NCBI GenBank assembly: GCA_036377435.1
Contig: DASUYM010000314.1
Span: 547 to 64,546, forward strand
DNA from: Propionibacteriaceae bacterium
GTDB taxonomy: Bacteria; Actinomycetota; Actinomycetes; Propionibacteriales; Propionibacteriaceae
Reading direction: 5' to 3'
DNA length: 64,000 nt
In this document: piece by piece, positions 1 through 13,074 of the stretch
Layout: every line of letters begins with the position of its first letter
Numbering within the stretch: the stretch's first letter is position 1
The notes under the pieces: model-generated
Databases searched by the model: none
The model's input: the letters and a program-made list of their open reading frames with translations, nothing else
What the model was told of the DNA's origin: nothing
Translations under genes and position numbers: made by a program

Positions 1-459
1 ACGAGCGCCTTCGGCGGCGTCGAGCTGGCCAGGGTCGCCGTCGAGGACGGCACCATCGGCCACGGCGAGATCCGGGTCGGCGATACCGTTGTACTCGCTT
101 TCGACCGACGACCTGGGTGGCCGTCGATGCCGTCGCTGCTGCGAGTGTTTGTTGCAGATGCTGACGCGGCCATGGCCAGAGCCGTTGGAGCCGGTGCGCG
201 CGTTGTCACCGAGGCTGCGACCAGCGCCTGGGGTGCCCGCGGCGGCCGTGTCCGTGACCCGCTCGGCAACATCTGGTGGGTGACCGCGCAGGTCGAGACC
301 GTCTCCCCAGACGACTCCTGGGCCCGACTCGGTGAGCCCGGCTACGCTGCCGCGATGCGGGAAGCCCAAGAGACGCTGGACGTCGAGCTGAGCGGCCTTC
401 CGACAGGGACGGCTTCGGCTCCGGTCGCGCCAACCCAGCCAGGTCCGAACCAGCCCTAG
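1..459 (+). CDS. VOC (glyoxalase/bleomycin-resistance, PhnB-like) family protein, 5' end outside window
   Basis: Frame 1 is open from nt 1 to the stop at 457-459. The translation ...IGHGEIRVGDTVVLAFD...LLRVFVADADAAMARAVGAGARVV...WGARGGRVRDPLGNIWWV fits the pattern I associate with PhnB-like VOC proteins. Confidence 0.6.
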   Translation, partial: TSAFGGVELARVAVEDGTIGHGEIRVGDTVVLAFDRRPGWPSMPSLLRVFVADADAAMARAVGAGARVVTEAATSAWGARGGRVRDPLGNIWWVTAQVETVSPDDSWARLGEPGYAAAMREAQETLDVELSGLPTGTASAPVAPTQPGPNQP

Positions 460-718
460 AACCCAGCGCACTAGTGCGCCGCGCACCGAGAAGCACGCTC
501 TCCCGGTTTCGAGGCACCCACAGTCGCGCCGGAAGACCTACTTCCCGCAGGTAGGTTGCGGTTTACCTCGACCAGGTGATTCGTAAGCGGAAAGTGGGAG
601 CGAGCTCCCCGGTACGCCAATGCAACCAGCGGAGTCGGCAGCCGCTGATAAAGCACATCCCCGTCGAGATCATCCGCTCGTCGGGCGGTGGCGTCGCTGC
701 CGCCATAGGGTGTACCGG

Positions 719-1114
719 ATGCATCATGAGGTGACCGACATCGACACCGCCGTGGCGCTGGGCAGTGGTGACGTTCCCGTGCTCGCGACACCGCGCTTGA
801 TTGCGTGGATGGAGGCGGCAACCGTGCGGGCCGTGGCCGCCTTCCTCGAGACAGGCCAGACGACCGTCGGCACCGCGATCCGAATAGAGCACCGTCGCCC
901 GACCAGGGTGGGAGGCAGCGTCGAGATCACCGCAGCACCGCCGCGCGACGTCGCCGGGAGCCGTCTGACCTTCTACGTCCAAGCGGTCGACGGCTCGGGG
1001 GAGGTCGTCGCAGTCGGCGAGATCGACCGGGCGATCGTCGATCGGCAACGCTTCCTCGCGTCCCTGTCAGCCGCCGACGCCGGTCACAAAACGAACGATA
1101 TCCCGTGTCGCTGA
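719..1114 (+). CDS. hotdog-fold thioesterase-superfamily protein
   Basis: This lies in ORF 620..1114. ATG 719 gives MHHEVTDIDTAVALGSGDVPVLATPRLIAWMEAATV...GTAIRIEHRRPTRVG, typical of small thioesterase/FlK-like hotdog proteins. The 33 codons upstream are Arg-rich and look non-coding. Confidence 0.6.
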   Translation: MHHEVTDIDTAVALGSGDVPVLATPRLIAWMEAATVRAVAAFLETGQTTVGTAIRIEHRRPTRVGGSVEITAAPPRDVAGSRLTFYVQAVDGSGEVVAVGEIDRAIVDRQRFLASLSAADAGHKTNDIPCR

Positions 1115-1182
1115 CACACTCTGACCGTCTGCTCGATATCTCTCGGCGGCTACAACAACAGAAGCAACGGAGGTGCAGCCCG

Positions 1183-1524
1183 ATGGAGCTGGAACGGGCT
1201 CGATCATTACTGGAGGCGGAGCGTGCGCAGGTGCAGCGGCTGCTGGCCGATCTCGGCACGGCCCGGACAGATGACCATGTGGCCGAACGCGATGCGTCTG
1301 ATCCGGCGCAGCCACTGGCAGAACAGGGCGTCGACGATGCCGTAGCCGCGGGCCTGCGGGACCGGCTCGCGGCACTCGATCGGACTCTGGAACGGGTCGA
1401 AGACGGCAGCTATGGTCGCTCGATCCGCAGCGGTGCGCCCATCCCGGATGAACGCCTGGAGGCAGACCCGCCGGCCGAGCTCACCGTCCAGGAGGCCGCC
1501 GACCATCAAGCGGCGGACCGATAA
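1183..1524 (+). CDS. TraR/DksA-family-like protein with Cys-less zinc-finger region
   Basis: ATG 1183 is preceded by GGAGG about 8 nt upstream. There is a coiled-coil N-terminus, then LERVEDGSYGRSIRSGAPIPDERLEADPPAELTV. This aligns to the DksA C4 finger (YG-C-x2-CG-x-I...RL...C-x2-C), but all four Cys positions are substituted. Confidence 0.55.
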   Translation: MELERARSLLEAERAQVQRLLADLGTARTDDHVAERDASDPAQPLAEQGVDDAVAAGLRDRLAALDRTLERVEDGSYGRSIRSGAPIPDERLEADPPAELTVQEAADHQAADR

Positions 1525-1585
1525 CCGGCGGCGAGCCAGTCGGCTGACGACGGCGCCGACACACCTGTCGCCGACTGCACCTTTG

Positions 1586-3079
1586 TCACGGCACAAGCAA
1601 ACCCCAATAGCCCACCCAGCCCAGGAGAACCGCGCCCGCGGCCACCAGCATCGGCCGATGATGATCGGTCCGGTCACCATGGCGGCGGGAACGCCACCAC
1701 CGGGCGGCGATCACAATTGTGCAGACGCCGACAGTGATGGCTGATCCCTGGAGCAAGAGCCACGGGAGCGTACGACCCACGACCACGGGCCCGATGACAT
1801 TCGCGGCCGTGATCATCAAGAACAGCAGGTAGACCGGGAGGCCGAGCGTGGTGAACAAGCCGGCGGCAACGATTAGGCGCTGGGTGCCACCTAACTTCGA
1901 GGCCATGGAGCCCCCGCGGATGTGGCCCACCAAGCCTGCGAGGGGGTAGAAGGCGAACCCCATCGTCAGGGTAAAAATCAGGCCGAGGTGCGCCAAGGCC
2001 GCTGCGCCGTTCAGCGGAACCAGCACCGGCGGCGGTGTCTCTGTGGTGGGTGGAGTACCGAGTCGCGACGGCTCTGTGCGCGCGAGGTCGTCGATCCAGT
2101 GACGCTCGTAGGCCCCGTAGTCGGCCGGTAGTGACATGATCCGGTCGAAGCCGCCGTCCGCGGTGAGGTTGAGGTTATGGCGTACGCCGCTGATGAATCG
2201 CATCGTGTAGCGGGTGTTACCTCCGCGACGCAGTGCTTCCTCGATGGCCGTGCTGCTCCCCCGGGGGAGGGCGACCCGGTCAAACTCACCCCATTCGGCG
2301 AGCACCCCCTGCCGTACCTGTTGCCAAGCCGGGACCGGGTCGAAGTTGGCCTCGGGAAACAGACCGGCGCTGATCATCGTCCGAAGCGCGGTGATCTCCA
2401 GGGTGTGCGGCAGCCCGGCGCCTACGCCCGCGTGGCGGAGGAACTGGTCGTAGCCCCAGGCGGTCTGCACCGCTGGCGTCACCCCGACAGCGCCGACTGT
2501 GATCACGAACTTGACTGCACTCGACCGACGGCAGGCGAGCGGGGCGACGTAGGCCCCTTCCGATTGGGCCCACAATCCGAGGCGAGGTGGGTCGACGTCG
2601 CGTCGGGTCGCCAAGAGTGCCACCGCCGCGACAGCATCGGCGGCTAGCAGGTCGTAGTCGCGCCGCAAGATGCTGTAGCCGACCTTCCGTTTGTCGTAGA
2701 TGAGCGTGATGACGCCGTGCCGAGCGAACACCTCCGCGGCCGGTTGGAGCTCTTGCCGGCCGCGGTGGCCCGCTCCCTCCAGCATGACCAGGGCTGGTCG
2801 ACGTTTCCCGGTCGGTTTCGGAGCCACCACGATCCCGTGCAGGATCAGACCCCCGCCGCCGACGAACGTCACGTCGGTGGTCCTGACGGGCTCCGGCTCG
2901 GCGGACGCTGGTGCAATAGGGGCACCCACGGCTCCGAGGAGGATGGCCAGGAGCCAGCCGACGCACACCCGCCAACCCTGAGGCCTGGCAGAGCTGCTGG
3001 TTCGCCGAAGGGCGCTCGGCGATCCGCTCGCGGGTCCAGTCCTGTCACCTGCGGGGACGACTCCAGTTCTGACCGTCAA
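1586..3079 (-). CDS. alpha/beta hydrolase with N-terminal signal/anchor and C-terminal multi-TM region
   Basis: The ORF is 497 aa. It has a hydrophobic leader (WLLAILLGAVGAPIAPASA), then PALVMLEGAGHRG and a nucleophile-elbow-like LWAQSEGAYVA. The C-terminal ~140 aa form 4-5 hydrophobic helices. The start codon is uncertain. Confidence 0.65.
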   Translation of the reverse strand: MTVRTGVVPAGDRTGPASGSPSALRRTSSSARPQGWRVCVGWLLAILLGAVGAPIAPASAEPEPVRTTDVTFVGGGGLILHGIVVAPKPTGKRRPALVMLEGAGHRGRQELQPAAEVFARHGVITLIYDKRKVGYSILRRDYDLLAADAVAAVALLATRRDVDPPRLGLWAQSEGAYVAPLACRRSSAVKFVITVGAVGVTPAVQTAWGYDQFLRHAGVGAGLPHTLEITALRTMISAGLFPEANFDPVPAWQQVRQGVLAEWGEFDRVALPRGSSTAIEEALRRGGNTRYTMRFISGVRHNLNLTADGGFDRIMSLPADYGAYERHWIDDLARTEPSRLGTPPTTETPPPVLVPLNGAAALAHLGLIFTLTMGFAFYPLAGLVGHIRGGSMASKLGGTQRLIVAAGLFTTLGLPVYLLFLMITAANVIGPVVVGRTLPWLLLQGSAITVGVCTIVIAARWWRSRRHGDRTDHHRPMLVAAGAVLLGWVGYWGLLVP

Positions 3080-3342
3080 AGCGCATCACATCCCACAAGC
3101 TCGCCGACGCCTTCATGAGATCGGGGATTCCAGGGGTAACACCGCATCAAGATCAACAAGGTGCACTGCTGGATGGCGCATTCCGTTGAGACGGGCAGAC
3201 ATTGCAGGTTCTCCGTGGTCGGGGGACTCAGACGCCCACCACTGTAGGAATCAGGGCGCCCCGCAAACCACTCGCTGCAGGCGACAGTTCGGATCGCTTT
3301 TCGACGTACGCGGCAGTTCCTGGGGCTTGCCCGTTGGCCCTA

Positions 3343-3380
3343 CCTCGTCCCCACCTTGGCTCCTCGTCCCCACCTTGGCC
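3343..3380 (+). repeat. tandem duplication of a 19-nt unit (CCTCGTCCCCACCTTGGCT x2, last base differs)
   Basis: Read directly: unit 3343-3361 is followed by unit 3362-3380. The unit core GTCCCC-ACC-TTGGCTCC equals the 3' end of the tRNA-like relic at 3530-3543 (GTCCCCTTGGCTCC) apart from a 3-nt insertion. Confidence 0.8.
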
Positions 3381-3465
3381 CGGAAGTACGACGATCCCGC
3401 ATCAACCGAGGCGACGCGAGGCGACCGTGGTTCGGCGCTGCCCAGCGCGGCTCGTCAATCCTCAG

Positions 3466-3546
3466 CGAGCCAGGGCAACGCTCAGCGATGCCGTTCCGTC
3501 ACTTTGCAAGCACGGGGTTAGCGGGTCGAGTCCCCTTGGCTCCACC
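3466..3546 (+). pseudogene. decayed tRNA-Ala(UGC)-like relic (not a functional tRNA)
   Basis: The sequence is CGAGCCA..GCTCAG..C-TTTGCAA-GCACG GGGTT AGCGG-GTCGAGT-CCCCT TGGCTCC-A-CC. It is colinear with bacterial tRNA-Ala(UGC): D-arm GCTCAG, anticodon loop TTTGCAA, T-arm AGCGG/TTCGAnT/CCGCT, and 3' end TAGCTCCACCA. The acceptor pairs at 6/7 and the T-stem at 4/5. The D and anticodon stems do not pair. T54 is G, and pair 3:70 is A-T instead of G-U. Confidence 0.5.
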
Positions 3547-3647
3547 CCTCTTTGGACTCCCCTCGGCGACATCACCATCGGAGCCCGGTGCGCCGCTACG
3601 GTAGTGCCCGCGGAGCCGTCAGCGCGGCTTCTATAAGGAGTGCCAGG

Positions 3648-4559
3648 ATGAGCGTCACCATTGACGGCCCGGCCGACTTCCCGGCGTTGTTTCGGAGCGC
3701 GGACCGGGAATCTGAGCGAGCACAGCGGTCTTACCTGAGGTCACTCAGGGTGCGCCTCGGTGCCCTGCTCGTCGCAGCCTTCGGCGGTGCGCTCACGCTG
3801 ACTACCGCGGGTGGCTTTCAGGTTGGTGGTGGTCTGGCATTTCTCGCCTTCGCTTGCGCGTTGGGCGCCGAGCTCTTCCTCGCCAGGACCAACCCGCTCA
3901 CAACATGGTACGAGGGCCGGGCCGCAGCGGAGTCAGTCAAGACGCTCGCCTGGCGATACATGGTGCGCGCCGAGCCCTTCGAGGGCGACGCCCCTGACGT
4001 CGACAAGCAGTTCCTTGCCCAGACCCACTCGCTGCTGCAGGACCTTCGGTCGATCTCATTGGGGACAGCAGAACCCGGTGCACACCAGATCAGCGACAAG
4101 ATGCGCCAGGTTCGCGCTCTCGACTTCGATGAGCGTCGGCAGGTCTACCTCGCCGACCGGATTGCCGACCAGCAACACTGGTACTCCGAGAAGGCGCAGT
4201 GGAACGATCGCCGAGCGCGCGGATGGGTGCTCGTCAGCATTGTGCTCGAAGTCGCCGGCCTCATCGGCGGCGCGCTCAAAGCGTTCGGCTGGATCAGCTT
4301 TGACCTGCTCGGCTTCCTTGCCGCATCGGCCGCGGGTGTCATGGCCTGGATCGAGGCGAAGCAGCACCGCAACCTGGCGACGGCGTACGGCATCGCGAGT
4401 CAAGAGCTCGCCTCAATCGCGACAGAGCTCCCGACGTTGAACAACGAGGAGCGTTGGGCCGCCTTCGTGGGCCAGGCCGAAGAGGCGATCTCCCGCGAGC
4501 ACACTCTGTGGCGGGCGTCACGGGGACTGTCCGACCGCTTCAGACACAGAGAAGGCTGA
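3648..4559 (+). CDS. 4-TM SLATT/DUF4231-like membrane protein (predicted conflict-system membrane effector)
   Basis: ATG 3648 lies 7 nt after AAGGAG. The plan is: TM hairpin (LGALLVAAFGGALTLTT / GLAFLAFACALGAELFL), then TWYEGRAAAESVKTLAWRY, a helical linker, QQHWYSEKAQWNDRRARGW, a second TM hairpin, and a C-terminal helix. The family assignment is from memory of SLATT/DUF4231 architecture. Confidence 0.6.
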   Translation: MSVTIDGPADFPALFRSADRESERAQRSYLRSLRVRLGALLVAAFGGALTLTTAGGFQVGGGLAFLAFACALGAELFLARTNPLTTWYEGRAAAESVKTLAWRYMVRAEPFEGDAPDVDKQFLAQTHSLLQDLRSISLGTAEPGAHQISDKMRQVRALDFDERRQVYLADRIADQQHWYSEKAQWNDRRARGWVLVSIVLEVAGLIGGALKAFGWISFDLLGFLAASAAGVMAWIEAKQHRNLATAYGIASQELASIATELPTLNNEERWAAFVGQAEEAISREHTLWRASRGLSDRFRHREG

Positions 4560-4566
4560 ACAAGGC

Positions 4567-4601
4567 CGACCCACCACGACTCGGGCTGGCGTGGGTGGTC
4601 G
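4567..4601 (+). terminator. possible stem-loop terminator after the first SLATT gene
   Basis: CGACCCACCACG-(11 nt)-CGTGGGTGGTCG pairs at 10 of 12 positions and starts 8 nt after the stop. There is no T-tract. Confidence 0.3.
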
Positions 4602-4704
4602 TCGACTTGGCGGAAATATATGCCAGGCGCGATTCCGCTAACCGACGTCGGCGACCTGACTCTTAGGCTTACAGCAGGCGCTCGGGTGAGTGGAAGTGGT
4701 CAGT

Positions 4705-6264
4705 ATGGAGAAAGGCGAGGCGGGGCGGGTCTTCATCAGCTATCGACGCCAGGAGACGGCGTGGCCGGCGCGACAGCTCTACGACGCGCTCGTAGCTGAA
4801 CTGGGGCCGGATCGGGTCTTCAAGGATGTCGACGACATCGAGCCAGGCGATGACTTCGTCGAACGGATCCAGTCGGCTGTGGGCTCCTGCCAGGTGCTAC
4901 TCGCTCTGATCGGGCCCCAGTGGCTCACCGTCACCGATGCCAAGGGAGCGAGACGCCTCGATGACCCAGAGGACTTCGTTCGGCTCGAGGTTGAGACCGC
5001 ACTGAATCGAGACGACGTTCGAGTCATTCCCATTCTCGTTGACAACGCCAGGATGCCGACGCCTCCGGAACTGCCGAAAGGGCTGGCGGGCTTGACCCGT
5101 CGACAGGCGGTCGAGATAAACCCGGTCAACTTTGACACTCGTCGACTCTTGAGGGTGCTGAACCACACGCTGAACGACGTCGGCGGCGAGCCAGATGGGC
5201 CGTTGATATCCGGGGCCGGCGTACGGGTCCAGCCACCGGGGACAACACCGCCCGTACCTCGGGTCGAATCCGCGGCCGCGGACGGGACGAGCGATGAGTG
5301 GGTACGACCCTCCGCGCCTGCCAGACCCGGAAGCGATCGAGCGGCAGCCCGAAGACGAACGGGCATGTTGGTGGCCGTCGCTACTTCGGTCGTCTTGCTG
5401 GTGGCGGGTGGCGCCGCTGCCTGGTATGTCACGCGCGATCCTTACCAAGGCACTGCGACGATCGGCAACTCCACATCCGCCTCAAGTCCGCCCTCTGCCA
5501 CCCTCGATCCGTCCAGCAGTCCGTCGAAGACCACAGCGGCTGACGACCCAACCGGTTCGGACATCCTCGCCCACCGCGGCGGCGACGAGAAGTATCCGTT
5601 GCAGACCTTTGAGTCCCTCACGTCGGCGGCCGATGACGGCTTCGCGGTGGAAACTGACGTGCGCTGGACCAGCGACAACCGTGCGGTGATTATCCACGAC
5701 GCCGCGGCGACCCAAGGGTTACGGTGCGATCGGCCTTACCAAGTGTCCGAGACGACATGGAAAGTGCTCAGCGAGCACTGCCGCTCATTCACGAAGAACG
5801 GGAAGTCCTATCCGCCTGCAACGTACGCAAATGTGATGGAGGGCCTGGCGAGCTACAGCTCATGGGTCTACGTCGAGGTCAAGGTTGACCAGAACGCTGC
5901 GCAAAACCGCGAGTTCATCGATGTCATCCGCAGTAACGGGCTGAGTGACCGCACCGTCGTCACCTCAAACAGCCTGGACCGGCTGGCCCAAATCAGAAAG
6001 CTCGCACCCGATCTCCCTCGCATGCTCTTCATTGGCGAGAAAGTTCCCGCAAACCAACTGGATCAGGAGAAGTTGTGGGCTGTTGCGGTCAACCATGAGG
6101 TTGCGACGAAAGACTACGTAACCGAGCTGAAGGATGCTGGGATCGTCGTAATCGTCTGGACCGTGAATGAGAAACAAGCATGGGCAAAGGCGAGGTCGGC
6201 GGGCGCCGACAAAGTGCTGACCGATAAGCCAAGCGCTTACGCCGCCTGGCTGGACAAGCAATGA
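4705..6264 (+). CDS. TIR domain - single TM helix - extracytoplasmic GDPD-like phosphodiesterase fusion protein
   Basis: The N-terminus RVFISYRRQETAWPARQLYDAL...QVLLALIGPQWL...DFVRLEVETAL is TIR_2-like. The helix MLVAVATSVVLLVAGGAAAWYV is preceded by AARRRT. A Ser/Pro/Thr linker follows. The GDPD motifs are ILAHRGG and FAVETDVRWTSDNRAVIIHD. An alternative GTG start lies at 4690. Confidence 0.8.
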   Translation: MEKGEAGRVFISYRRQETAWPARQLYDALVAELGPDRVFKDVDDIEPGDDFVERIQSAVGSCQVLLALIGPQWLTVTDAKGARRLDDPEDFVRLEVETALNRDDVRVIPILVDNARMPTPPELPKGLAGLTRRQAVEINPVNFDTRRLLRVLNHTLNDVGGEPDGPLISGAGVRVQPPGTTPPVPRVESAAADGTSDEWVRPSAPARPGSDRAAARRRTGMLVAVATSVVLLVAGGAAAWYVTRDPYQGTATIGNSTSASSPPSATLDPSSSPSKTTAADDPTGSDILAHRGGDEKYPLQTFESLTSAADDGFAVETDVRWTSDNRAVIIHDAAATQGLRCDRPYQVSETTWKVLSEHCRSFTKNGKSYPPATYANVMEGLASYSSWVYVEVKVDQNAAQNREFIDVIRSNGLSDRTVVTSNSLDRLAQIRKLAPDLPRMLFIGEKVPANQLDQEKLWAVAVNHEVATKDYVTELKDAGIVVIVWTVNEKQAWAKARSAGADKVLTDKPSAYAAWLDKQ

Positions 6265-6282
6265 GCTGTATGGACTGGGTTC

Positions 6283-7317
6283 CTAGTGGTCGGCACCTTC
6301 TCCGCTGGAGGCGGCGTCTTTCTGCGAGGTTCCGCTGCTGAGGGCTTTCTCCAGCCGTGCAACGGCTGCCTGCATATTCTCGGCTCCCTCCAACCATTGG
6401 CGATGCTCGAGCGATAGCTGGTCCTGCACAGCGGCGACGTACTCACCGAGCACCGACGTGGATCCGGCGGCGATGCCGAGTCGAACGTCGTCGAGGCGCT
6501 CGCGTAAGCCCTGCAGTGCCTGAGCGGTATTGTCATAACGCTCGGCGTTCCTACGATCTTGGTTGAGGGATTCGCGGGCGGCGGCGAACGCTTGGAGCGC
6601 GGCGCCGAACACCGCAAGCGAACCGAGCGCAGCCCATTCGCTCCTCAGCGCACCGAGTACTCCGGCCGCACCTGAGGCAATTGCCGCAACCAGGACGGAT
6701 CCGGCCGATATATCAAGGGTCCGTTCGGCCGAGTTGCGGTGCCCCGACCGGCGGGTTTTGTAGTAAGCGAGCTGAAGGTCTAGCTGATAGCGGCGAAAAT
6801 ACTCCAACTTGAGCAGTTCGAGCTGGAGATCGAGTGGCTCTATTGAGGAGTTCACGATGTAACTGAAGTAGGACAACCGTTTGGTCTCTGCCCGAGCGCG
6901 CGCGGTCATCCAGTCCTCGAGGAGCCGACCTTCCTTCACCCGAAACAGCGACATCGACGCGACTCCGCCGGTGGCGACACCCATAAGAGCGAGCGCGATG
7001 AGAATTGTCTGAGTTAAGCCGCCCAATCTGCCCGCAAGCAGTGCCACAGCCATCAGTAGCGCGCTCACCGTCGCCGTTGCGAGGACGGCCCGGTTGGCTC
7101 GGATTACCCATCGCTTGAACTTTCGCTCTGCGGCAAGTGCTTCAGTGTCAGCGTCCGCATACTGGTGCGCCAGCTCCACGGGGGCGCTGCGGGTCAGCAG
7201 AGCGGCCAGTTTGGGCGCCGAGGTTTTCAGCTGCGCGGCGTGCTCGACAGGCGACAGTCCGTAGTCATCAGGGCTGCCGCTGCCAATAATTCGGGCCGCA
7301 TCCGACATGATCATCAC
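6283..7317 (-). CDS. 4-TM SLATT/DUF4231-like membrane protein, paralogous in plan to 3648..4559
   Basis: The ORF is 344 aa. It has a TM hairpin (AVLATATVSALLMAVALLA / ILIALALMGVATGGVASM), then DWMTARARAETKRLSYFSY, LQLAYYKTRRSGHRNSAERT, a second TM hairpin, and ...NAERYDNTAQALQGL. It is convergent with the TIR gene with an 18-nt gap. Confidence 0.55.
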   Translation of the reverse strand: MMIMSDAARIIGSGSPDDYGLSPVEHAAQLKTSAPKLAALLTRSAPVELAHQYADADTEALAAERKFKRWVIRANRAVLATATVSALLMAVALLAGRLGGLTQTILIALALMGVATGGVASMSLFRVKEGRLLEDWMTARARAETKRLSYFSYIVNSSIEPLDLQLELLKLEYFRRYQLDLQLAYYKTRRSGHRNSAERTLDISAGSVLVAAIASGAAGVLGALRSEWAALGSLAVFGAALQAFAAARESLNQDRRNAERYDNTAQALQGLRERLDDVRLGIAAGSTSVLGEYVAAVQDQLSLEHRQWLEGAENMQAAVARLEKALSSGTSQKDAASSGEGADH

Positions 7318-7467
7318 CCCGCGATCTCGACACGTTCGTGGCTTAGCACCTCAAAGGTGAACATGCTCATCCGACCATCGACAGGTGTGACGTCAAAGTA
7401 CAGCAGTGTCCCCGCTACTCAACGCTGTCCCGCGGGGTTCGCCCACACTCGGCGCAGCAAGTGGGTT

Positions 7468-7738
7468 TCAGCTGGTCGTGTCAGTGAGAAATGCGTGAAC
7501 GCGGTCGGTCTGGGTTGGCAGCAGATGGCCGGCATCGGGAAAGAGGATGACCGTCGCATGTGGAGCGTGCTGTTCCAGCCGTTGCTTCGTGTCGACCGAG
7601 TTGAGAACGAACGTCTCGCCCAGGTGCGTAGAGATCCAATCCTCGGTGTGCGGTACGGGCCAGCCGGCCAGCAACTCCTTGTAGTGGCGGCGCAGTGCCG
7701 CCGCGCTCTCGGGGGGTGCGGTAGATCGCGTCGGTCAT
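7468..7738 (-). pseudogene. alpha/beta hydrolase remnant (internal deletion plus frameshift)
   Basis: One frame gives MTDAIYRTP. The other gives ESAAALRRHYKELLAGWPVPHTEDWISTHLGETFVLNS, a typical hydrolase N-terminus. That is joined directly to ...HAPHATVILFPDAGHLLPTQTDRVHAFL, a typical C-terminal His region. The whole catalytic core is missing. Confidence 0.6.
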
Positions 7739-7746
7739 GGGCGGCG

Positions 7747-8186
7747 TTATCCCTCGACCACAGCGCTGACGAGACGAAGGATCTCGGCGCTGCGGGTGAG
7801 GCCGCCGGTCAGAATCACGCTCATGCTGGCGAGCTCCTCGTCGTAGTTGATGGTGATGTGGAGCTGTTCAGAGCTCTCCGACGGTGTGGCGGCGATCCCG
7901 GAGATAAGACCGGCCAGGCGATCGCGCAGATCGGGGCTGACCGCGTCCACCCGGATAACGCTGGACGCGTGAGCCTGACGCTGGCGAACGACTGCCTGTC
8001 GGGGGGTTGTCGGCAGCGACGCGCCGGCAAACGCTTCGAGGTCAGCCCGCGCAATGCGGTAAGACTTGCCGATTCGGGTCGCTTTGAGGCGACCGTCCCG
8101 GCGTGGCGGCCAGGATAGGGCGGATGCCTATCACGTCGGCCCGGGGGCCGACTCTTTAGAGCGCGAGCCATTGCAATTGAGGCCAA
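7747..8186 (-). pseudogene. excisionase/MerR-type HTH gene, apparently frameshifted
   Basis: The open frame reads ...SWPPRRDGRLKATRIGKSYRIARADLEAFAG... (HTH_17-like recognition helix and wing) with no start codon upstream of it. The preceding helix (ADVIGIRP) and an ATG (MARALKS) sit in two other frames. Only the C-terminal 67 codons (7747..7950) have a start (GTG). Confidence 0.4.
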
Positions 8187-8260
8187 TAGCCAGTGACATC
8201 AGCTTGGGCGCTGCATACTGACCTCTAATTGCGCGTTGGTGGCACTCGGGGGTTGTAGAT

Positions 8261-11200
8261 ATGCGGCGCAAATATTCGCGCGCAAGCGCGTTAGCCGGAC
8301 TGCTCGGTCTGATCATCAGTGTCAGCGTCGGTGTCGACGTGGCGGCTGCCCATTCCCCTGGGGATGACCAGGCTGATGTTGAGCACGCCAAGCAGGATCT
8401 TGCCGGTACCTCGATCGAGCAGATCGAGAAGCAAACCCTGGCCAACGCAGCCAAGATCAAGAAGGCTACCGGAGACACTCCCGGCCGACCGACGGCCGAA
8501 CAGAATGTGCCCAACGCCAGCATCTCGGCTGCCGCCGCTGCGGATCCTGGCCAGGGTGGAGCCTGGAGCTCGGTGGTCAACACCGACCAAGGAGGCAAAA
8601 CAGGAGTCGTGCCGATTTTCCAGGCAGTCCTGCCGAACGGCAAGGTGCTGATGTGGGATTCAGTGGGACAGAACGCGCCGGAGTCGATGACGAACAACAC
8701 CTTCACCCGCGCCCAGATTTGGGACCCTAACGCCAACCCCGCGACCACCGTCCGCAAGGACGTCCCGAACTACAACATCTTCTGCGCTGGATACACCCAA
8801 CTCGCGAACGGCAATGTGCTGCTCGTCGGCGGCAACAAGAATGCTGCGCTCGACGGCATTGTGCAGACCCACATTTTCGATTGGCGTAAAGAGGAGCAGG
8901 GGCAAATGCCCTGGAGCCGTGGACCTGATATGGCGGCTGCGCGCTGGTATCCCGCGGTCCAGGCTTTGGGCAATAACGAAGCCGTGATCGTTGGCGGCGG
9001 TCCGACTGTCCCCGAGGTCTACCAGACCAACAACACGCTTCGCCGGCTCACGAACGCCAGCGGGTATAGCGATCGGCTCTATGCATTCCTCAGCACCCGT
9101 CCCGATGGCCAAGTCCAGTTGATGGGTCCCCCTGGCCAGATGAGCACTATCAACACCAGCGGCACCGGAGCGATCAGCGCCACACAGACACGCGACAACA
9201 TCAACCGCACCTATGGCGGCTTCGCCACCTACAACGTAGGTAGGTCCTCGACCGGCGAGGATTACGCCAAGGCCCTAGTCGTCGGAGGCGGCGACATTAC
9301 CGAAGGCGGCCAGAACGACGTACCCACCAAGACGGCTAAAGTCGTTAGCGTCAACGGCAGCACCACCGCCGTTAGCTCCACCGCCTCTATGTCGGTAGGA
9401 CGGCGGCAACACAACCTCACCATTTTGGCTGACGGCAGCGTGCTCGCCACTGGCGGAATGAGCCGCGCGACCAATGCGAACGTCGATCTCAATAACCCAG
9501 TGTTCGCCGCGGAGCGGTGGGATCCAGCCACAGGGACCTGGACAGTCTTATCCGGCGCGAGCCGAGTACGCCAATACCACTCCAGCGCCACGCTGCTGCC
9601 AGACGGCCGCGTACTCACCGGCGGCGGCGGAGTCTGCGCTTCCTGCGTCAGTGCGGGATATCTGGAGAAGAACATCGAGTACTTCGAGCCGCCCTACCTC
9701 TATAAGAAGGACGGCAGCGGGCAGAAGGCGACCCGACCGGTGATCAGCTCCGCACCAAGCACCGCTACCTATGGGCAAGGTTTCAACATCACCTCGACGC
9801 AGGCCGGATCCATTGCCAAGGTTGGGCTCGTACGCCTTGGGGCGGCCACACACAGCCAGGACCAGGGACAGCGCTACGTACCCTTGTCCTTCACGGTCTC
9901 AGGCAGCACCATCACTGCGACTCCGCCAGCGACCTCAAACATCGCGCCAGCCGGTTACTACATGCTCTTCATCACCGATACTGCCGGCGTCCCGTCAGTG
10001 GCCAAGATGATCCAGGTGCAGCAGAAGCCGGCGGTCAAGGGGGCGCCGTCGGACTTCAACGGCGACGGATTCTCTGATGCGGTCGTCGCCGATCCTTACG
10101 CCGACCCCGGAGGTGCCGCCGACGCCGGACAGCTGACCGTGCGCTATGGCAACAGCAGCACGATCGGGGGCGGGTCGGTGGACACGCTCGTGCAGGGCTC
10201 GGGCAGCGTGGGCAACACTGCCTCGGCCGGAGACCGATTCGGGTCCACCCTGGCTGCTGCCGATCTTGATAACGATGGCTACACCGACCTCCTCGTCGGA
10301 ACACCATACGAGGACATCAGCGGCCAAGCCGATTCCGGGTTGGCACAGGTCATCTGGGGTTCGTCAGGCGGGCTCGGCGAGGGCAGGGCATCGACGCAGC
10401 TGACCCAGAGCTCCTTTGGGAGGACCGCTGCCGCAGGTGATCAACTGGGTTACGCGCTGGACGCGTCCAACGAGCTGGGCGCTGACTTGCCAATGGCGGC
10501 CGTTGGTGTTCCGCGCGGCAATGTCTCCGGGCAGAATGACGCCGGATGGGTCGGCCTCCTTGCCGCCGGCCTCAACGATCCGAGGGCCGTTGATCAAAAC
10601 TCTGCTGGGATTCCTGGGGCCGCTGAGGCGGGGGATCGGTTCGGCGAAGCGATCACGCTCGGCCTGATGGCCGGGACCTCCAGCCGAGTTGATGCCGCGG
10701 TCGGTACCCCAGGCGAGGACTTAGGCTCCGGTACAAGTGCGATAACCAACGGCGGCGCGTTCACCATAATCAACGATCTCTACACCGGAGTCGTAGCTGG
10801 GCAAGCCTACGACCAGAACAGTTCAGGGGTCCCCGGCACCCCGGAGGGCAATGACGCCTTCGGCCAGGTCGTGGACAGCGTCCGGGCCGGGGGCACCACA
10901 CACTTGGCGGTCGGAATTCCCTCCGAGGACATCGGAACGGCGGCCGACGCCGGCAGCGTGCAGCTCTTTTCTTCCACTGGCACCACGATCACGCCGGGCG
11001 TTGGGCTGACTCAGGACATCACGAATGTCGCAGACACGTCCGAAGCGGGTGATCAGTTCGGGCGCCGTCTCGTGCTGGCACCGCCGGGATTGAGTGACAC
11101 CAAGACTCGTCTTGCCGTGTCCGCGCCGTACGAAGACCTGTCAGCCGTCGCCGACGCTGGGCTGGTCCAGATCTTTCCGCTTGATGATCTTGGTGCGGAG

Positions 11201-11479
11201 GTCACCTACGACCAGAACAAGGAAATTGATAGCACCCCGATTGAGGGCAGCGTGGCCGCCAATGATCATTTTGGTGAGGGCCTCGGCTTCGTGGCCGGCG
11301 TGGCCGAGCGCTCCATCTTGATAGGAGTGCCCGATGATGTGGAGTTCTCGAGCGGCATAGTGCACGTCATCCCGCTGCCCGGTGGGCCCCCGCGGACCTG
11401 GCGCCCGGGTGTGGGCGGAGTTCCGCCTACAGCGGCGGACAGGTTCGGTGGCGCTGCCGGCGGGGAGGTGCAGCAGTAG
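8261..11479 (+). CDS. secreted galactose-oxidase/glyoxal-oxidase-like radical copper oxidase fused to FG-GAP repeat region
   Basis: A signal peptide is present (ASALAGLLGLIISVSVGVDVAAA). The copper-oxidase motifs occur in the expected order: NIFCAGY (Cys of the Tyr-Cys cofactor), ARWYPA, RQYHSSATLLPDGRVLTGGGG (Tyr-His), and AATHSQDQGQRYVPL (His). The C-terminal ~480 aa carry repeated FG-GAP units (FNGDGFSDAVVADP, GDRFGSTLAAADLDNDGYTDLLVGTPYED, and others). Confidence 0.8.
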   Translation: MRRKYSRASALAGLLGLIISVSVGVDVAAAHSPGDDQADVEHAKQDLAGTSIEQIEKQTLANAAKIKKATGDTPGRPTAEQNVPNASISAAAAADPGQGGAWSSVVNTDQGGKTGVVPIFQAVLPNGKVLMWDSVGQNAPESMTNNTFTRAQIWDPNANPATTVRKDVPNYNIFCAGYTQLANGNVLLVGGNKNAALDGIVQTHIFDWRKEEQGQMPWSRGPDMAAARWYPAVQALGNNEAVIVGGGPTVPEVYQTNNTLRRLTNASGYSDRLYAFLSTRPDGQVQLMGPPGQMSTINTSGTGAISATQTRDNINRTYGGFATYNVGRSSTGEDYAKALVVGGGDITEGGQNDVPTKTAKVVSVNGSTTAVSSTASMSVGRRQHNLTILADGSVLATGGMSRATNANVDLNNPVFAAERWDPATGTWTVLSGASRVRQYHSSATLLPDGRVLTGGGGVCASCVSAGYLEKNIEYFEPPYLYKKDGSGQKATRPVISSAPSTATYGQGFNITSTQAGSIAKVGLVRLGAATHSQDQGQRYVPLSFTVSGSTITATPPATSNIAPAGYYMLFITDTAGVPSVAKMIQVQQKPAVKGAPSDFNGDGFSDAVVADPYADPGGAADAGQLTVRYGNSSTIGGGSVDTLVQGSGSVGNTASAGDRFGSTLAAADLDNDGYTDLLVGTPYEDISGQADSGLAQVIWGSSGGLGEGRASTQLTQSSFGRTAAAGDQLGYALDASNELGADLPMAAVGVPRGNVSGQNDAGWVGLLAAGLNDPRAVDQNSAGIPGAAEAGDRFGEAITLGLMAGTSSRVDAAVGTPGEDLGSGTSAITNGGAFTIINDLYTGVVAGQAYDQNSSGVPGTPEGNDAFGQVVDSVRAGGTTHLAVGIPSEDIGTAADAGSVQLFSSTGTTITPGVGLTQDITNVADTSEAGDQFGRRLVLAPPGLSDTKTRLAVSAPYEDLSAVADAGLVQIFPLDDLGAEVTYDQNKEIDSTPIEGSVAANDHFGEGLGFVAGVAERSILIGVPDDVEFSSGIVHVIPLPGGPPRTWRPGVGGVPPTAADRFGGAAGGEVQQ

Positions 11480-11976
11480 CGCACCGTGGGCCAGCTGAGT
11501 GGCACGGAGGCCCCCCATTGGTCTTGCCGCACTGCCGCACTCAGGGCCGTCGGAGGCCGGTTGAAGAACCCGCCGGAGGCGTCGGGAATGGCTGTGCGGG
11601 ATCAGAATCGGGCGCCATCGATCCGACGCGGCCCCGGGTGGTCGGCATCATCGACGCCGAGCTCCTTCTTGGTTGGAGCCGGTTCCAGCGAACCGATCCA
11701 GATGACTTCGTCGTGAAGTGTGCGGTTGGTGCGCCGAGATCTGAGTTCGCGAGTGACGACGACCCGATACGAAACTGGGACTGCACGTAGGTCATGAGAG
11801 AACCTTGGAGGGCAGGTAATGCGTGGGAGGTCTGGCGCTGCGATGTCGCTCGTCTCGACGGCTCAAATGCTCAAATGACGGCCGAAACGTCCCAGACTGG
11901 CTGTTGATTCAGCAACAGAAGTACAGCGCGGCCCGCCGTCGCAGTCAAGACCGTTGAAGCCGACGCGCCTCCACGG

Positions 11977-13074
11977 TCACAAGGCGCGACGTTGCGCGAC
12001 CAGCGGGCAGAGGAAGGGGTCTTTGCCCCTCAGTCCGACGCTGTTCAGGTACCGAATGACGACACCGTAAGCCTGCCACAGCGATGTCTGGGTGTACGGC
12101 ACCCCTTCTGCCGCGCAGTAAGCGGCGACGAGGGGTTGCACCTTGCGGAGATAAGGGCGGGCCATCGAGGGGAACAGGTGGTGTTCGATCTGGTAGTTGA
12201 GGCCGCCCATGAGGATCGACATGAAGCGTCCGCCGCTGACATTGCGACTCATGAGGACCTGGCGGCGTAGGAAGTCCAACTTCAGCCTCGGTGAGACCAG
12301 CGGCATGCCGATGTGGTTCGGCGCAAACGACGAGCCAAGGTAGAAGCCGAAGACGGCCAGCTCGACAGCGAGAAAGGCGGCGGCCTTCCCTGGCGGCAAC
12401 ACCAGAAACACCAGAGCAACGAGACCACCGTGGCGGACCGTCAGCAAGGAGAGCTCAATCCAGCGGCGCTCGACCGGGCGGCGGCTCAGACCGCGGCGAA
12501 ACCCTTCTGAGTGGAGTGAGAGGCCTTCGAGCAGGAGGATCGGGAAGAAATACCAGCCCTGGTGGGACACCAGCCATTGCATCAATGGGCTGCGGCGCCG
12601 GGTTGCCTGCTCAGGGGTCATAGCGATGGCACCCAAGGCGACATCGGGATCGGCACCGACCTTGTTCGGGTTGGCGTGGTGTCGGTTGTGCTTGCTTCGC
12701 CACCAGCCGTAGCTGATGCCGACGAACAGGTTCGCGATGATCATGCTGGTCCAGTCGTTCCACCGGCCGGACTTGAAGATTTGGCGGTGCGCTGCGTCAT
12801 GGCCGAGAAACCCCAACTGGGTCATGATGATCGCGAGCACACCGGCACTGAGCAGTTGCCACCAGCTATCGCCGATCCAGATGAAGGTGAGTACCCAGGC
12901 GGCCAGAATGAGCACGGCGCCGATCAGTTTGGTCCAGTAGTACCCGTACCGGCGGCGCATGAGATCCAGGTCGTGCACGCGGCGGGCCAGGGCGGTGAAG
13001 GAGCTGCCGGCTCGGGTGTCCGTGGCTGCGCCAGGAGCCGTCGCCGAAGCGGTCGGAGTAAGGGTAGAAGTCAT
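11977..13074 (-). CDS. membrane fatty acid desaturase
   Basis: Three histidine boxes are present: HDAAHRQ, HNRHHANPN and QIEHHLFPSM. Hydrophobic helices are also present. Confidence 0.85.
   Translation of the reverse strand: MTSTLTPTASATAPGAATDTRAGSSFTALARRVHDLDLMRRRYGYYWTKLIGAVLILAAWVLTFIWIGDSWWQLLSAGVLAIIMTQLGFLGHDAAHRQIFKSGRWNDWTSMIIANLFVGISYGWWRSKHNRHHANPNKVGADPDVALGAIAMTPEQATRRRSPLMQWLVSHQGWYFFPILLLEGLSLHSEGFRRGLSRRPVERRWIELSLLTVRHGGLVALVFLVLPPGKAAAFLAVELAVFGFYLGSSFAPNHIGMPLVSPRLKLDFLRRQVLMSRNVSGGRFMSILMGGLNYQIEHHLFPSMARPYLRKVQPLVAAYCAAEGVPYTQTSLWQAYGVVIRYLNSVGLRGKDPFLCPLVAQRRAL

Follow-up and report, generated by a model that had tools for sequence, protein, structure and literature searches.

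The question raised by this locus is whether a gene for a TIR-domain protein and the two genes for SLATT membrane proteins that flank it in a Propionibacteriaceae bacterium, an uncultured actinobacterium from soil, form a single anti-phage system and, if so, of what kind. The window, meaning the whole stretch analyzed, is 64,000 nucleotides (nt) of contig DASUYM010000314.1 (assembly GCA_036377435.1). The three open reading frames (ORFs) concerned are all present where an initial annotation, made from the letters alone, had placed them: gene A at 3648-4559 (+), gene B at 4705-6264 (+) and gene C at 6283-7317 (-). That annotation took A and C for SLATT/DUF4231 proteins of one plan and B for a TIR protein with a candidate catalytic glutamate and an exported GDPD domain. 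It proposed that the TIR domain makes or senses a signal derived from nicotinamide adenine dinucleotide (NAD+), that the SLATT pair permeabilizes the membrane, and that the gene set was undescribed. The coordinates and domain calls have been borne out, while the claim of novelty has not, since a TIR protein with a SLATT effector is the pairing of type VII Thoeris (10.64898/2025.12.03.692087). The explanation favored here, with confidence that falls a little short of even, is that the locus derives from type VII Thoeris, with B in place of ThsB as the source of the signal.

Type VII Thoeris was described in a bioRxiv preprint of December 2025 and is reported there from several phyla, Actinomycetota included. 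It consists of a TIR protein, ThsB, and a SLATT effector, ThsH: upon infection ThsB makes canonical cyclic ADP-ribose (cADPR), to which ThsH responds by killing the cell. The anti-phage activity of the system has been validated experimentally (10.64898/2025.12.03.692087). With the TIR domain of a validated type VII ThsB as the search query (Table S1 of 10.64898/2025.12.03.692087), the homologues recovered were 143-amino-acid proteins of the PF08937 family. At two loci, one of them in Providencia stuartii, a ThsB homologue 69% identical to the query lies immediately upstream of a 294-amino-acid protein with DUF4231, SLATT_3 and SLATT_1 domains. The ThsH architecture used for comparison here (DUF4231, SLATT_3 and SLATT_1 in about 295 amino acids) was inferred from the neighbors of such 69%-identical ThsB homologues and not from validated sequences.

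Gene A encodes a protein of this architecture. Its SLATT_3 (E 6e-46), SLATT_1 (E 3e-36) and DUF4231 domains all score above the cut-offs of Pfam and of the matching NCBIfam models, and its four transmembrane (TM) helices form two hairpins, at residues 33-72 and 192-231. The alignment of A with the Providencia stuartii SLATT protein encoded next to ThsB runs end to end over 289 residues at 36% identity (E 3e-55), and the two proteins share the motifs TWY-x-x-R-x-x-AES-x-KT and SREHT-x-W. A metagenome scan with the A/Providencia alignment returned 80 loci, among which those 83-96% identical to A belong to the same lineage as the window. In 22 further cases, soil examples at 42-50% identity, the A-like gene has a ThsB-type ORF in its locus, nearly always directly upstream and on the same strand, and most relatives of A in this identity range are encoded immediately after ThsB genes. 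Because of the Providencia alignment and these relatives behind ThsB genes, the sequence of A marks it as a clear homologue of the type VII effector ThsH, and as descended from it. PADLOC v2 and NCBIfam r20 contain no defense-system model for A and none for the canonical ThsH-like proteins, so that their silence on A is uninformative as to novelty. A search for solved structures matching A or C by sequence found none, even at E≤10.

The wider superfamily offers less specific comparisons. The SLATT effectors of cyclic oligonucleotide-based antiphage signaling systems and of defense-associated reverse transcriptases (DRT10/UG17, which uses SLATT_5, and DRT3) belong to the same two-helix membrane superfamily of predicted pores triggered by nucleotides or nucleic acids. 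A and C, however, are of the double SLATT_3 plus SLATT_1 type, and no cyclase, reverse transcriptase or noncoding RNA lies nearby. As first annotated, the neighboring genes include no SIR2, Macro, SLOG or cyclase gene.

A second likeness to type VII Thoeris is that a TIR domain with a candidate catalytic glutamate is encoded beside A. Gene B encodes 519 amino acids, of which residues 9-125 match TIR_2 (PF13676; E 5e-14, 53.3 bits against a cut-off of 28), and the best solved relatives of this domain are the TIR domains of SARM1 (E 1e-4). The segment DFVRLEVETAL of B (4972-5004) aligns with DWVHKEIVTAL of SARM1, which places E95 on the catalytic glutamate of the SARM1 WVHKE motif, a residue that we take to be E642. 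E95 is invariant among B relatives down to 41% identity (alignments A1 and A2). The FISYRR box, the D-[WF]-V-x-x-E catalytic helix and the BB-loop glycine are common to B and SARM1, although their identity is only about 25-30%, and B, whose activity is a prediction, is without the ARM and SAM domains and is membrane-anchored with an ectodomain. SARM1 reportedly makes canonical cADPR, a result credited to Essuman in 2017. To our knowledge, Thoeris TIRs are otherwise small soluble proteins.

B has a single hydrophobic helix, at residues 221-239 (nt 5365-5421; hydropathy peak 2.25). Because lysine and arginine number five before this one helix and one after it, B is predicted to be a single-pass protein with the TIR domain in the cytoplasm and the GDPD domain outside it. 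The GDPD domain (PF03009; residues 290-510; E 8e-24, 85.6 bits against a cut-off of 23.6) has UgpQ (2otd), a cytoplasmic TIM-barrel GDPD, as its best solved relative. When aligned to 2otd and 2pz0, it retains H290/R291, E316/D318, H331 and E391/K393 (alignments A1 and A2), corresponding to the His/Arg, Glu-x-Asp, His-Asp and Glu-x-Lys elements of UgpQ; in solved GDPDs, these seven residues serve in catalysis and metal binding. C341 and C359 are also invariant in both alignments. In contrast to such enzymes, the GDPD domain of B is membrane-tethered and TIR-fused and reads PLQT at the usual PENT position. It falls far below the NCBIfam equivalog cut-off (69 versus 264 bits) and is therefore no UgpQ or GlpQ orthologue. 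The ectodomain is probably an active phosphodiesterase whose substrate preference has shifted. Secreted GDPD enzymes of the GlpQ type degrade teichoic acid and glycerophosphodiesters.

An AlphaFold2 model of B, built on a 12-sequence alignment, reached a mean predicted local distance difference test score of 43.6, too poor for fold searches. The close homologues of B number in the hundreds and all combine TIR and GDPD; the named ones come from Propionibacteriaceae metagenome-assembled genomes (MAGs). No mention of a TIR-GDPD fusion was found in the literature searched, and no TIR-GDPD gene was found in viral contigs. In one TIR-GDPD relative (L026, 5980-7497; related loci are given here by L numbers), the first catalytic histidine of the GDPD domain is replaced by arginine (LARRGG), and its ectodomain may therefore be inactive.

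The TIR domain of B belongs to a very large family, with 4,530 matches at E≤1e-30 among 1.84 billion representatives searched. Family architecture was assessed in the top 150 listed representatives, of which 96 were Pfam-scanned and 103 were at least 300 amino acids long with a TIR box-1 motif. TIR_2 is present in 95 of the 96 close representatives scanned, and the C-termini of these 96 span 74 Pfam families, among them GDPD (13 proteins), PD40, Kelch, TPR, WD40 and PASTA. A TM helix follows the TIR domain in 76/103 representatives, and exactly one does so in 66 of those 76. B is plainly one member of a family with an N-terminal TIR domain, a single TM helix and a variable outside domain, and it can exist without SLATT partners. 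No description of a family with this build was found in the literature searched.

Gene C carries two TM hairpins, as A does, and the common plan noted in the initial annotation is recovered by profile alignment: the C family aligns collinearly with the A/ThsH family in hhalign (C residues 41-310 against residues 3-290; E 4.9e-5, probability 68%). A hidden Markov model (HMM) of the A family has C as its sole other match in the window. SLATT_1 is called in C above the cut-offs of both Pfam (31.8 versus 26.3 bits) and NCBIfam (41.6 versus 41), while the SLATT_3 signal is weak (E 0.007, 16.5 bits against a cut-off of 45). C is best read, from these profiles, as an old and very divergent paralogue of A. 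An identical match to C occurs as a Propionibacteriaceae MAG protein, and, with the exceptions of L015 and L019, C adjoins B wherever the locus is resolvable and at least 71% identical to B.

The features of the block, with window coordinates and strand, are as follows:

3573-3647 (+), leader of A: about 75 nt, with a TANNNT-like TACGGT, a GC hairpin and a GGAG ribosome-binding site; left block edge
3648-4559 (+), gene A: 303 amino acids, ThsH-like, SLATT_3 plus SLATT_1 (DUF4231), two TM hairpins
4631-4704 (+), leader of B: conserved, contains TAGGCT
4705-5184 (+), TIR_2 region of B: residues 1-160, N-terminal, predicted cytoplasmic; E95 codon at 4987-4989
5185-5556 (+), linker of B: variable, one TM helix followed by a stalk rich in serine, proline and threonine
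5557-6264 (+), GDPD region of B: C-terminal phosphodiesterase domain, predicted to be extracytoplasmic
6283-7317 (-), gene C: 344 amino acids, divergent double-SLATT paralogue, convergent with B
7318-7410 (-), leader of C: conserved; right block edge

The block thus extends over 3.8 kb (3573-7410), with similarity ending about 75 nt 5' of A and about 95 nt 5' of C. In an alignment of the region upstream of A from 9 loci with differing flanks, conservation begins only at about 3573 and continues to the ATG. The leader of C is conserved in 7/10 loci aligned, B-C loci included. The 5' leaders of A, B and C are each 75-95 nt long and are conserved across loci with different flanks, and A, B and C are three separate transcription units held together as one block. 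Within the leader of A, the GC-rich hairpin (CCGCG...CGCGG) lies between the TACGGT box and the ribosome-binding site and could be regulatory.

The arrangement of the block was scored in the 41 loci of the lineage that were resolved on both sides, drawn from genome and metagenome contig scans. The full A-B-C arrangement accounts for 30 of these loci, B-C for 5, A-C for 3 and B alone for 3, and A-B without C occurs in none. The flanks of the trio fall into at least 7 unrelated contexts, those of B-C add at least 3 others, and the block edges are sharp. The ratio of nonsynonymous to synonymous substitution rates (dN/dS) of the folded domains is 0.11-0.26 across five independent comparisons, at a dS of about 0.2-0.45. 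By gene, dN/dS is 0.12-0.21 for A and 0.12-0.25 for C; within B it is 0.11-0.20 for the TIR domain, 0.16-0.26 for the GDPD domain and 0.72-1.09 for the linker. The flanking genes Hyd and GlyOx have values of 0.29 and 0.17, respectively. Because the genes are under purifying selection, and because the trio and B-C recur in differing flank contexts with sharp edges, A, B and C are judged to be functional and to move as one block among close relatives. Neither direct nor inverted repeats flanking the block nor mobile-element genes around it were found. The correlation of A, B and C distances in a mirror-tree analysis is weak, and is uninformative because the range of divergence is narrow. One bin (MFD08497.bin.2.53) contains two complete A-B-C blocks with differing flanks on separate contigs (L004 and L005), so that either the genome has two copies or the bin is mixed.

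While the likeness to type VII Thoeris is clear for A, the locus also differs from that system. The TIR domain of B is a SARM1-like TIR_2 domain fused to a TM helix and an external GDPD, and not a PF08937 protein such as ThsB. B lies downstream of A with a leader of its own, whereas ThsB genes normally precede and overlap the effector gene in one operon. With C, the locus has an additional SLATT gene, which has diverged greatly. The locus also lies outside any defense island, whereas residence in defense islands or mobile elements was the basis on which type VII was discovered. A degraded ThsB upstream of A was looked for and none was found.

Other loci with ThsB genes vary in their surroundings. 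In Providencia stuartii (L028, 1523-4313), two tandem pairs of ThsB and SLATT_3/SLATT_1 genes lie by BrxA, integrase, PIN_12 and TnsA genes in a classic defense island. L091 and L092 (3387-5891) each carry a canonical ThsB-ThsH pair and, after it and convergent with it, a gene for a 299-amino-acid soluble TIR_2 protein; here too a ThsH gene has a further TIR neighbor that is not ThsB. At L027 (1758-3429), the validated ThsB used as the query has a 72% identical homologue whose partner is a TPR-S protein instead of a SLATT protein, which fits the cADPR signal reported to be shared by types VII and VIII (10.64898/2025.12.03.692087).

A mechanism can be proposed on the supposition, which is plausible, that B is functionally coupled to A and C. 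Activation of B, probably a clustering mediated by its membrane or ectodomain region, would lead its TIR domain to cleave NAD+, giving a cADPR-type signal, NAD+ depletion or both. A, perhaps together with C, would bind the signal and oligomerize, and the membrane would be breached, leading to growth arrest or cell death in the manner of abortive infection. The TIR activity, the nature of the signal, the trigger and the interactions of A with C and of B with A and C are the parts of this scheme that we infer. The signal-and-pore idea in the initial annotation is sound in outline, and A is homologous to the effector of just such a system; that B works together with A and C is plausible but unproven.

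Several observations weigh against a type VII derivative in which B supplies the signal. No ThsB-type TIR was found in the window (ThsB HMM, six-frame search) or among the ORFs of L001-L026. No SLATT gene lies within 6 kb of B in L015 (70% identity) and L019 (82%), or of any of the more distant TIR-GDPD genes (41-53%; L021 at 51%, L024 at 41%, and L026); these SLATT-less genes all keep the TIR, TM helix and GDPD build. In the A-C pairs of L033 and L035, an unrelated 150-nt spacer takes the place of B, with no remnant of it. The leader of B is kept alike in A-B-C, B-C and B-only loci, and C, being convergent with B, is not co-transcribed with it. The many other C-terminal domains in the TIR family of B mean that B may act alone. 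Finally, metabolic genes make up the flanks both in the window and in some 10 further contexts, with no defense island; the exception is a STAND NTPase in L018.

The alternative that survives best, possible although on the unlikely side, is that B is an autonomous TIR sensor and NADase effector, while A and C are a separate ThsH-type pair answering another signal or none. Their adjacency would then reflect a shared stay in a variable accessory spot, with no direct signaling between them. The conserved leader that each gene has to itself is consistent with this, as are the occurrence of B alone (L015, L019, L021, L024 and L026), the A-C pairs without trace of B, and the relatives of B with a post-TIR TM helix (76/103) and varied C-terminal domains. 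However, a TIR gene directly beside a ThsH homologue is the defining pairing of type VII Thoeris, and joint movement of the trio, found in 30/41 loci and at least 7 flank contexts at a dS of about 0.3, would be unexpected for unrelated neighbors.

It is distinctly less probable that the block is a lineage-specific envelope or physiology module with no role in phage defense. The substrates of the outside GDPD domain would be envelope lipids or glycerophosphodiester polymers, the TIR domain would couple envelope state to NAD metabolism, and the SLATT proteins would be regulated channels in stress, dormancy or programmed death. The dN/dS of 0.11-0.26 matches that of neighboring housekeeping genes, the G+C content is native and the flanks are metabolic, and there are no mobile-element genes or flanking repeats and no TIR-GDPD found in viral contigs. 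The seven retained GDPD residues would also suit such a module, as the ectodomain is then probably an active enzyme. Against this, the closest characterized relatives of A are anti-phage effectors, and the block behaves as accessory genes do, changing place from one close relative to another and occurring patchily (as B-C, as A-C or as B alone). That the locus is instead a decaying remnant, in which ThsB was lost from a former ThsB-ThsH system and the rest is inert, is very improbable: ThsB is absent, a hydrolase pseudogene lies next door, and A, B or C is frameshifted in L017, L020, L025 and L048 (which may equally be long-read assembly errors), but all three ORFs are intact here, purifying selection is seen in five comparisons, and the catalytic residues and motifs are invariant.

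The genomic setting does not resemble the defense context that the initial annotation described. The G+C content of the module (63.1%) is close to that of the window (63.6%) and not that of a lower-G+C islet, and the neighboring genes encode a glyoxalase, a thioesterase, a membrane hydrolase, a galactose-oxidase-like protein, a fatty-acid desaturase and a GAF-ANTAR protein. No tRNA was called by ARAGORN in the whole window, or by Rfam at E≤1 in positions 1-13000; the presumed tRNA relic is probably the string GGTTAGCGGGTCGAGTCCCCTTGGCTCCACC at about 3505-3547, which resembles a tRNA in its 3' portion; related loci do not conserve this string in the region upstream of A. The gene debris was correctly seen: two fragments of an alpha/beta-hydrolase gene (43 and 33 amino acids, 72-79% identical) lie at 7510-7713 (-), within the 940-bp gap after C, and represent a decayed gene that is intact in L001 (327 amino acids), between C and the galactose-oxidase-like gene. 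Nor is the trio conserved across genera; it is confined to one uncultured Propionibacteriaceae lineage. A phage origin of the block was considered and rejected, with no TIR-GDPD and one distant ThsH-like match only in viral contigs.

Other features of the window lie outside the block. A perfect 18-nt tandem direct repeat, CCTCGTCCCCACCTTGGC, occurs twice, one base apart, in noncoding DNA upstream of A (3343-3379). A 497-amino-acid protein (1586-3079, -) has a secreted-hydrolase-like N-terminal half and several C-terminal TM helices; although 85% conserved in relatives, it matches no Pfam family at E≤0.001. Inside the desaturase gene, at 12820-12877 (+), there is a sub-threshold Rfam match to the archaeal snoRNA sR28 (26.9 bits against a gathering threshold of 39), which is almost certainly due to chance.

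As a pairing of a TIR protein with a SLATT effector, the locus is of a known kind; what differs here is a membrane SARM1-like TIR, an outside enzyme domain, a second SLATT protein and the absence of ThsB. B also represents a large family of single-pass TIR proteins that differ in their ectodomains and have apparently gone unstudied. A speculative extension, which we consider a long shot, is that B and its relatives are bacterial transmembrane TIR receptors, in which a surface event would act through the ectodomain to elicit a cADPR-type product from the TIR domain, and this product would in turn open ThsH-like SLATT pores. The ectodomain would sense or process an event at a glycerophosphodiester envelope polymer, such as phage adsorption or wall damage, and B would be clustered as a result. 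If true, this would be outside-in bacterial TIR immune signaling, topologically like that of Toll-like receptors, feeding a Thoeris effector. If the pairing of B with A and C is not functional, it serves as a caution that adjacency of TIR and SLATT genes alone does not make a system. If it is functional, the locus would offer a tractable three-gene system for the gating of ThsH-type pores and the cooperation of two SLATT paralogues, and bacterial TIR immune signaling could begin at the cell surface.

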